Below, piece by piece: positions 7,147-52,437 of a stretch of 64,000 bases of DNA. Location of the stretch: NCBI GenBank assembly GCA_033764955.1, contig JANRIL010000038.1:64001-128000 (forward strand), written 5' to 3'. How positions within the stretch are numbered: position 1 is the stretch's first letter; every line of letters starts with the position of its first letter. The DNA is from Cyanobacteriota bacterium. Its GTDB lineage: Bacteria > Cyanobacteriota > Cyanobacteriia > Thermostichales > Thermostichaceae. The position numbers and the translations under genes were made by a program. The notes beneath the pieces are model-generated. The model was given only the letters and a program-made list of their open reading frames with translations, was not told where the DNA came from and did not search any database.

Positions 7147-7655
7147 GGGGGTTTCCTCGGATGGTCTGCTCCCCTATTCTGACCTGCTCGGACAGAACTT
7201 GCCTGGAGATAAAGCCGCTTTTGAAGTGCGGCAACATGCCGATTGGGGGTGGGCGGAGATAGATAGCATCCGAGTCAGATTGGATAGAAAATTGGGGTCT
7301 GGGGCAATTGGGGGTAGTGCCCCTGGAGTAATGAGACTATTTACTTGGGGTTCTTCCATTTCTTATCTGAGCCATGTTTACCTGCCCAAACTGTCATTCT
7401 TCTAACTTTGTTAAGCAAGGCAAAACCCATAATAAAAAACAACGATATAGATGCCATGATTACCATAGGCAGTTTACTCCTAACTCCACTCAGAAAGTCA
7501 TTTCGGATGCGGGTAGATCTTTAGCGGATAAACCCTTGCTAGAACGACTTTCTATCGCAGCCATATCTCGGATAACAGACATCTCAGAATCATAGCTATA
7601 AAACTATATCAATCATAGGTTTGCTTATACGTCTCAAATCATGGAGATTTATTCC

Positions 7656-7679
7656 AAGCTTACGGTAGGCTGACGCCAA
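7656..7679 (-). repeat. SDR-like micro-element (reverse orientation) inside IS1
   Basis: Reverse complement TTGGCGTCAGCCTACCGTAAGCTT resembles the copies at 7728 and 8009; boundaries approximate. Confidence 0.55.
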
Positions 7680-7695
7680 CAAAAAAGGCACGTTG

Positions 7696-7711
7696 TTCGC
7701 GTTAGCGTCTT
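7696..7711 (+). repeat. Shortened SDR-like micro-element
   Basis: TTCGCGTTAGCGTCTT after TTG; identical at 52181-52196. Confidence 0.55.
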
Positions 7712-7727
7712 TTCCTGTAATGCGATG

Positions 7728-7750
7728 CTCGTGCAGCTTGGCGTAGCCAT
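7728..7750 (+). repeat. 23-nt SDR-like micro-element
   Basis: CTCGTGCAGCTTGGCGTAGCCAT interrupts the InsB CD(E)LWSFV motif. Confidence 0.75.
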
Positions 7751-8008
7751 TACTGTGGTCGTTTGTGGGATCCAAAGACAATCAACAATAGCTCTGGATT
7801 GTCATGGAGAAAGAGACTCGAATAGTCGTAGCCGCTTCTATCGGATCCAGAACCAGAGAAAGTGTAAAAGGGTTATGGAAGAGACTGCTAAAAATCTGGA
7901 AAAATAATAGTAAGTTCTATACCGGTTTCTGGAAATCTTATCAAAAATTTATTCCTAAAAATCAGTATGAAGCTGTTGGTAAAGAAACAGGGAAACCCTC
8001 TCTAATTG

Positions 8009-8031
8009 TTCGCGTAGCTTGGCGTACCCAT
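8009..8031 (+). repeat. 23-nt SDR-like micro-element
   Basis: TTCGCGTAGCTTGGCGTACCCAT; removal restores ATT GAA CGA, giving IERLTNTLRQR. Confidence 0.8.
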
Positions 8032-8298
8032 AACGATTAACCAACACCCTTAGACAGAGGATTGGAAGGCTAGCAAGAAAAACTCTATTCTTTTCCAAAA
8101 TGCTGGAGAACCGTATTGGGATGATCTTCAACTTTTTGCATCACTACCATGCATCATTACTTGCATAGGACTACCCAACGCGCCATTGGGTGGCCAGATC
8201 GACTGTGAAAACGGATTCCACCCCGTCCGAGCTACCCCTCTGGTGACATCTTGTGTTCTACCTGACCCAGTTAGGCGTTAGACTTTGGATGCTCTAGT

Positions 8299-10149
8299 TT
8301 GCCTACTCTCAATTCTATGCACTTGAGTAAATCTTTTCGCCGCACCAAAATTGTGGCTACCATCGGACCTGGTTGCCTCCACCCACAAACGTTGCGGGAG
8401 ATGATTGAGCAGGGGGCAACCACACTACGACTCAATTTTTCGCATGGCACTCATGAGGATCACCGCAGTAGCATTCGTTTGATCCGGCAGACGGCGATGG
8501 AATTAGGGATCCAGGTGGCGATTTTGCAGGATTTACAAGGTCCCAAGATCCGCTTGGGCAAGTTTGCGGAAGGATCCATTTCCTTGAAAGCGGGGGATCC
8601 CTTTGTCTTGACCAGCACCAAGATTCCAGGCACCCAGGAGCGCAGCTATGTCAGCTACGACAAACTAGCGACGGAAGTACCGGAGGGATCCACGATTCTC
8701 TTGGATGACGGGCGGGTGGAGATGCGGGTAGAAGCCGTCGATCAACAGTCGGGGGAACTGTTTTGTCGAACAATTGTGGGAGGGCCACTCTCCAATAACA
8801 AAGGGGTTAACTTTCCAGGGGTGCGGCTGTCGATCCGGGCGGTGACCGAAAAAGATCGGGAAGATTTGGTATTTGGCCTCAATCAAGGGGTGGACTGGGT
8901 AGCCCTCAGTTTTGTGCGGGAACCCTCCGATGTGGTTGAGCTACGGGAACTGATGCTGGCAGCGGGGCGACGGGTGCCGATTGTTGTCAAGATTGAGAAG
9001 CACGAAGCCATCGAGCAAATGGAAGGGATCCTCTCGATCAGCGATGGGGTGATGGTGGCACGAGGAGATCTGGGGGTGGAGTTGCCCGCCGAAGATGTGC
9101 CGATTTTGCAGAAGCGCCTGATTGCTCTGTCCAACCGTTTAGGGATCCCGGTGATCACCGCCACCCAGATGCTCGACAGTATGGTGCATAGCCCCCGCCC
9201 CACCCGTGCTGAGATTTCGGATGTTGCCAACGCTATTTTGGATGGAACCGATGCGGTGATGCTCTCCAATGAGACCGCTGTAGGCAAATTTCCCGTTGAG
9301 GCTGTGGCAACGATGGCTCGTATTGCCATTCGTACCGAGCAGGACTATCCCTATCGCAGCTTTCAGCAAAAGCGGGAACAGGTGAGCAGCCCTGCTATGG
9401 ATCGGATCTTTCAGCGATTAGGGGATCCCGTTCCTAGGGGCAAGCAGATGGTGATCCCTAACTCCATCAGCAAAGCGGTGGGGGAAATTGCCAGCGAGTT
9501 AGAGGCATCCGCCATCATGACCCTGACTAAAACAGGAGCCACCGCCCGCAATGTCTCGAAGTTTCGTCCCCGCACACCCGTGATCGCCGTTACCCCCCAT
9601 GTAGAAATCGCCCGTCGTCTGCAAATGGTCTGGGGAGTCGTGCCTCTACTGGTGATTGATCTCCCCTCCACGCGGCAAACCTTTCAAACCGCCGTCAATC
9701 TGGCTCAAGAACAAGGCTTGCTCAAGGATGGCGATTTAGTCGTTTTAACGGCAGGCACTCTCCAAGGCATTGCCGGATCCACCGATTTGATCAAGGTAGA
9801 TTTGGTCAAGTCTGTGGTAGCCAAAGGATTAGGGATTGGCAAGGGACGGGTACAAGGACCAGCACGCATTCTCACCTCTAGCCAAGATTCACAAGGAGTG
9901 ATGGCGGGCGAAATTTTGGTGGCCCGATCTACAGATGCCGATTGTGTAGAAGCGATTCGGCAGGCGGCAGGGGTGATCACGGAGGAAGATGGGGTAACCT
10001 CTCACGCGGCAGTTATCGGCATGAGTTTGGGGGTTCCAGTCTTGGTAGGTGTGAAAGATGCCACCCGCTTGATCCGCAATGGCTCCATTGTTACCATTGA
10101 TACCGAAAAAGGTGTGGTGTCTTCAGGTACCGATGGATTTGGATTCTAA
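8299..10149 (+). CDS. pyk: Pyruvate kinase with C-terminal PEP-utiliser mobile domain
   Basis: RRTKIVATIGP, RLNFSHG, DLQGPKIR, ARGDLGVE, MLSNETA; TSHAAVIG C-domain; alternative ATG start at 8317. Confidence 0.97.
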   Translation: MPTLNSMHLSKSFRRTKIVATIGPGCLHPQTLREMIEQGATTLRLNFSHGTHEDHRSSIRLIRQTAMELGIQVAILQDLQGPKIRLGKFAEGSISLKAGDPFVLTSTKIPGTQERSYVSYDKLATEVPEGSTILLDDGRVEMRVEAVDQQSGELFCRTIVGGPLSNNKGVNFPGVRLSIRAVTEKDREDLVFGLNQGVDWVALSFVREPSDVVELRELMLAAGRRVPIVVKIEKHEAIEQMEGILSISDGVMVARGDLGVELPAEDVPILQKRLIALSNRLGIPVITATQMLDSMVHSPRPTRAEISDVANAILDGTDAVMLSNETAVGKFPVEAVATMARIAIRTEQDYPYRSFQQKREQVSSPAMDRIFQRLGDPVPRGKQMVIPNSISKAVGEIASELEASAIMTLTKTGATARNVSKFRPRTPVIAVTPHVEIARRLQMVWGVVPLLVIDLPSTRQTFQTAVNLAQEQGLLKDGDLVVLTAGTLQGIAGSTDLIKVDLVKSVVAKGLGIGKGRVQGPARILTSSQDSQGVMAGEILVARSTDADCVEAIRQAAGVITEEDGVTSHAAVIGMSLGVPVLVGVKDATRLIRNGSIVTIDTEKGVVSSGTDGFGF

Positions 10150-52169: not shown

Positions 52170-52437
52170 AAGGCATGTTGTTCGCGTTAGCGTCTTTTCC
52201 TGCAAGGCGATGTTCGCGCAGCTTGGCATAGCCATAACTATGGTCGTTTGTAAGATCTAGAGGCAATCAACAATAGCTCCAGATAGTCATGGAGAAAGAG
52301 GCTCGAATTGTTGTAGCTGCTTATATTGGAACCAGAACCAAAGAAAGTGCAAAAAGGTTATCGAAGAGACTGCCATAAGCTTGGAAAAATAATAGTAAGT
52401 TCTATGCCGATTTCTGCAAAACTTATCAAAAAGTTAT
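52170..52437 (+). mobile_element. Second IS1 insB remnant, homologous to ~7685-7950
   Basis: Direct alignment to the first copy, including the same micro-insertions and the same TAG stop. Confidence 0.85.
52213..52235 (+). repeat. 23-nt SDR-like micro-element
   Basis: TTCGCGCAGCTTGGCATAGCCAT; removal restores GAT GAA CTA TGG TCG TTT GTA (DELWSFV). Confidence 0.8.

Follow-up and report, generated by a model that had tools for sequence, protein, structure and literature searches.

A 23-nucleotide SDR-like element inserted to the base in a degraded cyanobacterial IS1 transposase

How did near-identical 23-nt sequences come to lie inside the remains of a transposase gene? The question is raised by a cyanobacterial window of 64,000 nucleotides, positions 64001-128000 of contig C11 in the source genome (G000, 89% complete). 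At 7313-8175, on the + strand like the other window features described here, the window holds a degraded insertion sequence (IS) of the IS1 family, 863 bp long including 69 nt of small inserts and broken by several in-frame stops. An earlier note on this DNA held that a micro-element of about 23 nt had been inserted repeatedly and precisely into the transposase and could act as a way of inactivating incoming IS elements. The precision of the insertions has been confirmed by what follows, while the repetition and the inactivation have not. The copies are probably best explained by two old insertions of the small dispersed repeat (SDR) type into one ancestral IS1, which were then inherited as the broken element spread.

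Two of the 23-mers lie in the main IS1 copy of the window: site 1 at 7728-7750, within the D-E-L-W codons of the transposase, and site 2 at 8009-8031, between the I and E codons of the motif IERxNNTLRQR. They are 258 nt apart (7751-8008), in the same orientation and with the same consensus. A third, at 52213-52235, occupies site 1 of a second IS copy that is truncated at both ends (52170-52437, 268 bp, corresponding to 7685-7952 with 86% identity by blastn). A search with the pattern TTCGCGYAGCTTGGCRTAGCCAT at up to 3 mismatches gives these 3 matches in the window, against 0.00 expected from 100 dinucleotide-preserving shuffles. When an intact IS1 open reading frame (ORF) of 249 aa from contig C14 is compared to the window copy by tblastn, the match comes in separate segments at 7371-7649, 7753-8007/8013 and 8034-8162 (joint E 4e-56), and the frame changes fall exactly at the two 23-mers. 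Excising exactly 23 nt at 7728-7750 and at 8009-8031 restores ..CD(E/V)LWSFV.. and ..SLIERLTNTLRQR.., respectively, as the earlier note had already seen for the conserved motifs of the transposase.

Empty sites are found in the relatives. In 26 further ORFs from intact IS1 homologues across the phylum, DE[LM]W and IERxNNTLRQR are both contiguous, and none carries the 23-mers natively. The nearest relatives of the IS, with 65-67% DNA identity, are in G013, a genome of the same family as G000. Their ORFs are uninterrupted (..CDELWSFVGSKGNKKWLW.. and ..GKTSLIERLNNTLRQ..), they are 23 nt shorter across site 2 (402 vs 425 aligned bases), and their alignment begins directly after site 1. The borders of the 23-mers are thereby fixed to the base by the reading frame, and the unit itself has no coding capacity. 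The two sites had been described as clean TG^AAC joints with no duplication. No target duplication is seen at either one, and site 2 reads ATTG^AACG in all 5 copies that cover it, but at site 1 the joint is GATG^AACT in the 52-kb copy only and GATG^TACT in the other 4 of 5, the window copy (7751) among them. Frame and homologues together show that the 23-mers are precise insertions into the IS1 transposase, each of which broke the frame.

Several features mark the host element as an IS1. It is bounded by 22-nt terminal inverted repeats beginning GGTAGTG (the left one, GGTAGTGCCCCTGGAGTAATGA, at 7313-7334, and the right one at 8154-8175). An InsA-like zinc-ribbon reading frame runs from 7374 to 7595 and is ended early by a TAG at the W position of the homologues. 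IS1 elements have an InsAB' DDE transposase and use a slip site in a run of A residues. Here the -1 shift from the InsA to the InsB frame probably lies at an A6G run, 7681-7687, which also marks the frame change in the IS of G013. The motifs DELWSFV and IERxNNTLRQR..RKTLSFSK complete the likeness to the IS1 family. The Pfam matches (Zn_ribbon_InsA PF03811, E 2e-5, and DDE_Tnp_IS1 PF03400, E 1.5e-4) are both on fragments and slightly below the curated cut-offs because the transposase gene is in pieces. In-frame stops at 7596-7604, 7671-7673 and 7789-7791 stand where homologues read W or Q (TGG to TAG, CAA to TAA). The G+C content of the IS is 41%, compared to 51.5% for the genome, and the old window copy has no recognisable target duplication of the IS1 element itself. 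A homologue search with a 68-aa piece of the IS returned only two distant Chloroflexales loci. The element differs from the rest of the IS1 family in that every copy of it in this genome is dead and carries two or three 23-nt inserts.

What kind of element is the 23-mer? It is built of a 12-nt 5' arm (TTCGCGYAGCKT), a 4-bp hairpin with a GTA loop, and a final T, with the last T of the arm forming the first pair of the hairpin. The TGGC-GTA-GCCA mini-hairpin that the earlier note had read from the letters, in which columns 12-15 pair with columns 19-22, is upheld by covariation. Among 40 distinct copies, pairing holds in 98.1% of the cells and 21 cells carry changes on both sides, a level that 0 of 500 shuffles reach; control helices slid along the sequence pair in 15-64%. 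Variants with paired changes include TGGC/GCCA, TGCC/GGCA, TACC/GGTA and TCTC/GAGA. Rfam gave zero matches in the window at 7200-8300 and in five Nostoc loci.

The family is widespread in one part of the phylum. A scan of one genome per species found 17 loci, of which 15 are in Nostoc (11 of them in one metagenome-assembled genome, MAG), 1 is in a Chroococcales MAG and 1 is in Pseudomonas, the last probably being a chance match. Matches occur in 57 of the 401 genomes sampled from the phylum, among them 38 of the 45 in the family here called f19, with up to 135 copies in one genome; a reversed-pattern control gives 0-1 per genome. Single genomes can be rich, with 43 copies at up to 3 mismatches in the Nostoc genome G041, 155 in G158 and 19 in G018. 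Closer to home, 10 of the 22 other genomes in G000's own family carry related copies, compared to 0 of 7 in the sister family. The pyruvate kinase of G000 is 65-69% identical to the best 80 loci, with Leptolyngbya-, Elainella-, Nodosilinea- and Microcoleus-type genomes in the top rows, and the host is not of the Nostocaceae-type group. The family of the 23-mer extends beyond the Nostoc group. As to the IS1, a protein piece of it is found in 0 of the 45 genomes of the SDR-rich f19 and in 18 of 25 in another family, f15, though these opposite distributions are confounded by phylogeny.

The surroundings of the 23-mer in these genomes bear on its mobility. In Nostoc it sits just inside the left inverted repeat of a composite repeat with heptamer arrays that resembles a miniature inverted-repeat transposable element (MITE). 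At one position of this repeat, in four genomes (G041-G044), 6 copies are empty (TTGATTTCTG^AACTGATTTGC), 15 hold the 23-mer and 12 hold a 24-mer, TATCCCTCACGGGAGCGTAGCCAT, which shares only the 3' half GCGTAGCCAT with the 23-mer. The hairpin half has the look of a shared module to which different 5' arms can be attached. That all three states occur at one position marks the 23-mer as a discrete mobile unit. In G158 the unit lies within octamer arrays (CTGAACTY)n, often repeated in tandem at a spacing of 30 nt, and in G018 within another hairpin repeat. The earlier note's assignment of the 23-mer to elements of the SDR kind that encode no protein is supported by these filled and empty Nostoc alleles, as well as by the 57 of 401 genomes with matches.

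Elements of this kind are said to have been described by Elhai, Kato, Cousins, Lindblad and Costa in 2008 (Genome Res 18:1484) as SDR1-8 of Nostoc punctiforme and its relatives, 21-27 nt long. They reportedly have a conserved structure, occur in tandem repeats and mini-transposons and can be nested, and an RNA intermediate is said to have been proposed for them. The 23-mer is alike in length, lack of coding capacity, a hairpin with compensatory changes, residence in tandem short repeats and mini-transposon-like repeats, nested or tandem copies, and precise filled and empty sites. In copy number, many are dispersed in G041, G158 and G018, whereas G000 has only 9 in relics and 2 free. A further difference is the place: here the 23-mer lies in an IS1 transposase of a cyanobacterium that is not of the Nostoc group, with related copies in 10 of 22 genomes of its family. 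The 23-mer belongs to an SDR-like family, being likened to SDR1-8 by description. In citing papers (PMC5861425, PMC4390886, PMC13756078 and PMC3116915), SDR5 is given as 21 nt long and as inserting in HIP1 between the third and fourth bases, and one of them states that no SDR was found outside Nostocaceae. The function of SDR5, the single SDR family treated in a 2026 paper, is still called unknown there. By its length and its site in HIP1, SDR5 was ruled out as the identity of the 23-mer.

The way SDRs move has been an open question since 2008, and the IS1 locus is of interest for its unusually clean filled and empty sites, with borders exact to the base and the same target, TG^AAC, as the Nostoc repeats. 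A target preference of this form had been claimed from the IS alone, and its recurrence in Nostoc bears the claim out. In all contexts the left flank of the 23-mer ends in TG and the right flank starts with A, which is followed by AC in Nostoc and the IS. The target is conserved mostly on its right-hand side (AAC); the element itself has one small hairpin and makes no duplication. The unit enters in one orientation, between the G and A of TG^A(AC). When the inserts are set aside, there is no TGAAC on either strand of the 867 bases at 7311-8177, and therefore both available sites have been used. In IS1 homologues elsewhere, TGAAC stands unoccupied at the insert codons in 4 of 25 cases at site 1 and 7 of 32 at site 2. 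In Nostoc and G158 the filled alleles are short of one target A: CTG^AACT reads CTG-23mer-ACT when filled, and the net gain is 22 nt. The IS sites gain exactly 23 nt, and site 1 has a T for that A in 4 of 5 copies.

Were the two sites filled once, or again and again? The genome-wide fuzzy search that the earlier note had called for did find further copies, and all 9 in G000 at up to 3 mismatches sit in relics of one IS family (on contigs C6, C34, C38, C40 and C46 and in two relics on C11). In relics that cover a site, site 1 is filled in 5 of 5 and site 2 in 5 of 5, at identical positions; because 10 nt are deleted within one of these 23-mers, the 3-mismatch search gives only 9. A tenth match, at 5 mismatches, is unrelated. 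Outside the IS, a structure-aware scan gave one match within a 529-aa ORF that is put down to chance, and two copies between genes, at C14:54699 (TTCGCGGAGCGTGCCGAAGGCAT) and C14:135643, both of a different variant. Identity of the relics to the window IS copy is 80-89%. Over the 217-219 columns that they share, any two relics differ by 10.5-20.7%, and transitions account for most of this (16-33 of the 23-45 differences per pair). By hand count, the four full-length 23-mers at site 1 have 2-3 changes from the consensus in 23 positions and those at site 2 have 0-1. The site-1 23-mers are about as diverged as the IS around them, which, together with the filling of all copies at the same sites, fits two old events that were then inherited. 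All of the IS relics are dead, with their two or three 23-nt inserts each, stops at W and Q codons, other frame errors, truncations and MITE-like inserts.

The history that accounts for this best, and that we consider probable, is that two old SDR-type insertions into one ancestral IS1 were inherited with the spread of the broken element. The two copies entered this IS1 at its only two TGAAC pentamers, in the same orientation and between G and A. Since the micro-element encodes nothing, it must be moved by an enzyme acting in trans. Such an enzyme, whether of the host or of a mobile element, would recognise the hairpin together with a short target and work by copy-and-paste, most likely via a single-stranded DNA or RNA intermediate. 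The broken IS1 would then have reached no fewer than seven or eight places before it decayed, its movement probably driven in trans by an intact IS1 relative in G000. A candidate exists on contig C14, where a single 249-aa ORF occupies C14:106276-107022, in an element with ends near 106260 and 107040. Its terminal sequences, GGTAGTGC..AGTAATGA, are nearly the same as those of the broken family, so it could have supplied the transposase, and TGAAC is absent from both of its strands. Next to it, in opposite orientation, lies a second IS1 that is broken. In this one IS1 family of G000, in G018 and in Nostoc, SDRs have multiplied mostly by riding in IS elements and MITE-like repeats. In G000 the SDR system would now be inactive. 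This genome holds only relics, and the SDR-rich G158 or G041 would be better for work on the mechanism.

Several points weigh against this history. A twice-broken transposase cannot move itself, so that help in trans has to be assumed. The relic phylogeny is star-like and its informative sites conflict; the copy tree could not time the insertions, and from these sequences descent is not provable site by site. The site-2 23-mers look less diverged than expected, with 3 changes in 5 copies compared to about 7 by a rough estimate (a difference that is not significant), so that later or recurrent filling, or gene conversion, retains some plausibility. The filled allele of Nostoc, at +22 nt with its one missing A, is not quite the +23 nt of the IS. 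The polarity of a third indel, at 7653-7675, comes from outgroups only. Finally, the variant borne by the IS is that of Nostoc and the free copies differ from it, and the insertions may have occurred in another host.

That last point leads to the alternative that survives best, which is a variant of the preferred history and differs from it only in the place of the insertion events. It is possible, if rather unlikely, that the insertions were made in another host with Nostoc-type SDR activity and that the broken IS1 was transferred horizontally and then spread with help in trans. The IS-borne variant (..AGCTTGGCGTAGCC..) exactly matches copies in a Nostoc genome (G041:C3) and the Chroococcales MAG (G044:C19), and the free G000 copies, like those of its family, are of a different variant, GTGCC..GGCAT. 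The low G+C of the IS would also fit a foreign origin, but pseudogene decay explains it as well. Against it, the IS1 query finds no homologue in any of the 45 genomes of the SDR-rich f19, there is no SDR-bearing IS1 in the species-level genome scan, and metagenome contigs gave 0 matches at either IS-SDR junction. In addition, the third insertion is polymorphic among copies at different places in G000.

The enzyme that moves SDRs was sought in the same genomes. In G000, at 89% completeness, there is no match to the Y1 transposase (PF01797) and none to the reverse transcriptase (RVT_1), two of the co-occurring enzymes that the earlier note had suggested looking for; this fits the 23-mers being relics in G000. 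Reverse transcriptase is present in 4 of 5 other genomes tested, regardless of their SDR load. A likeness to HUH (Y1) systems, such as IS200/IS605 with PATE and REP/REPIN with RAYT, may be seen in the entry beside a short specific sequence, the fixed orientation, the lack of duplication, the hairpin as the likely recognised feature, and the presence of SDRs in the end-hairpin loops of IS605-like elements and their solo derivatives. HUH systems need two subterminal hairpins, and one 4-bp hairpin in 23 nt is far below that. The case also differs in that no Y1 gene was found in G000 and the TnpA subfamily tested did not co-occur with SDRs.

That TnpA subfamily came into view through G018, where a repeat bearing an SDR is found about 70 nt away from an intact tnpA of the IS200/IS605 type and the solo SDR-bearing repeats are copies of the end hairpin of the IS200/IS605-type element. 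Orthologous IS605-like elements in G158, G001, G008, G010 and G014 hold one to three SDR modules, in either orientation, in the end-hairpin loop, and those in G004, G027 and G022 have no clear module. Because the number of modules varies from 0 to 3 in orthologous hairpins, they look like insertions or passengers, not parts of the element. In this family, which has tnpA with a divergent large ORF, the modules sit in bulged end-hairpin loops and are sometimes nested, as at L127 (G018:C120), L220, L221, L225, L227 and L234-L236. In G014 the element measures 1920 bp and is present in three copies with at least 99.6% identity; its first bases, GTGAAC, contain the SDR target pentamer. The TnpA subfamily near SDRs is present in 10 of the 45 f19 genomes. 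Of these 10, 9 have SDRs, as do 29 of the 35 f19 genomes that lack it. Outside f19, SDRs occur in 1 of the 13 carriers in the 401-genome sample. The tested subfamily was rejected as the SDR mobiliser, as no dependence on it is shown and SDRs are common in f19 without it.

A broader idea, which we would call a long shot, is that SDRs preferentially land in mobile DNA (TG^AAC codons of transposases, end-hairpin loops of the IS605 type, MITEs) by way of a mobile element's enzyme, e.g., an HUH or single-strand transposase, and so take part in mobile-element conflict or in host control of IS elements across several phyla. If this were true, the base-resolved sites of the IS1 would be a ready-made target for catching the reaction.

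A stricter form of control, in which the micro-element or a host system independently strikes each incoming IS1 at the same two sites, comes closest to the function that the earlier note had in mind, and it is very unlikely. One could point to the filling of both TGAAC sites of the IS, with no other left in the window copy, to the little-diverged copies at site 2, to the SDRs in IS605-like end hairpins and MITE-like repeats, and to the fact that two of about four independent SDR-family events in G000 lie in IS DNA. However, dead IS and MITE DNA tolerates any insertion, and two relics have also taken up unrelated 104-nt repeats. No copy of the IS family has site 1 or site 2 empty, and the site-1 copies are as diverged as the IS itself. 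In G000 there are only two free copies, which lie outside the IS, and neither a Y1 transposase nor a reverse transcriptase was found. The TGAAC-bearing homologues in other genomes (4 of 25 and 7 of 32) are unoccupied, which also speaks against IS inactivation. Nothing in these data points to a silencing role.

Two further alternatives do away with the damage or with the mobile element. The 23-mers could be tiny introns or bypass elements that are skipped or removed at the RNA or translation level and leave the gene working, a thought invited by an element that reached many sites with both inserts in every copy, by the conserved hairpin and by the position of the inserts in the sense strand. 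It is hardly credible, since all copies also have stop codons and other frame errors and the host gene is not otherwise intact, no homologue has such inserts, and an intact related IS1 with similar ends offers a simpler route. Least likely of all, and close to refuted, is a local repair artefact in which the 23-mer of one site was copied from the other by template switching or gene conversion, as the spacing of 258 nt with shared orientation and consensus might suggest, because dozens of other genomes share this 23-mer, down to its borders and target, and filled as well as empty alleles exist among them.

Two more segments of the window IS had once been taken for copies of the element, giving up to four hits in the one transposase. 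The first was a reverse-oriented relative near 7656-7679. There is indeed a third 23-nt insertion here, TCCAAGCTTACGGTAGGCTGACG at 7653-7675, which is absent from the G000 copy on contig C6 and from outgroups and is polymorphic among copies at different G000 places. The C6 copy reads ..TTTATCCGTAAAAAAAGG.. (GTT TAT CCG TAA AAA AAG) and matches the G013 sequence GTA GAG CCC TCA AAA AAG codon by codon, and without 7653-7675 the InsA frame runs into the A6G slip site (..I Y P T K K). Its kinship with the 23-mer was rejected, since 1763 and 2422 of 5000 shuffles score as high in the two orientations, which is chance level. Searches of G000 with up to 5 mismatches, and of 400 further genomes of the phylum with up to 3, gave no second copy of this insert.

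The second segment, TTCGCGTTAGCGTC at 7696-7709, had been taken for a shorter variant, with its counterpart in the second copy at 52181-52194. It resembles the SDR 5' arm (12/12 with one gap), a likeness that is marginal, as 26 of 1000 shuffles reach the score, and it lies inside coding sequence common to the IS of G013 (LFTKCS), for which reason it was rejected as a clean insertion. It begins after TTG, where typical IS1s read TTG ACx. In G013 the A-run and the DELW codons are 54 nt apart, compared to 38-45 nt in 20 other homologues (one of these, L096, is listed from an upstream A-run and measures 42 nt from its inner run), and by hand count the spacing is 55 nt in the window copy without the site-1 23-mer. 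The IS clade of the window copy is about 13-14 nt longer here than the 20 other IS1 homologues, and the segment may be a very old, truncated, in-frame SDR relic. Of the four hits, then, only the two 23-mers are secure; the insertion at 7653-7675 has no known kin, and the segment at 7696-7709 is doubtful.

Some smaller observations concern the IS1 relics of G000. The 104-nt insertions (G000:C6:18033-18136 and G000:C34:37046-37149) belong to different dispersed repeat families, found in 7 and 4 other places, and look like MITE-type elements. Site 2 is empty (..ATAGAACGATGG..) in an older IS1 relic, about 72% identical, at G000:C5:135897-136036. The IS is also represented by two solo 3' fragments, at G000:C48:65875 and G000:C27:65533, which begin 2-4 nt past the 3' edge of the site-2 23-mer, with unrelated DNA upstream. 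At G000:C7:3615-3660, 21 nt from the right end of the IS, in inverted orientation, are joined directly to the left end of a further IS fragment (GGTAGTCCTATGCAAGTAATG directly followed by GTAGCGCCCC..), a case of one IS inserted at the tip of another.

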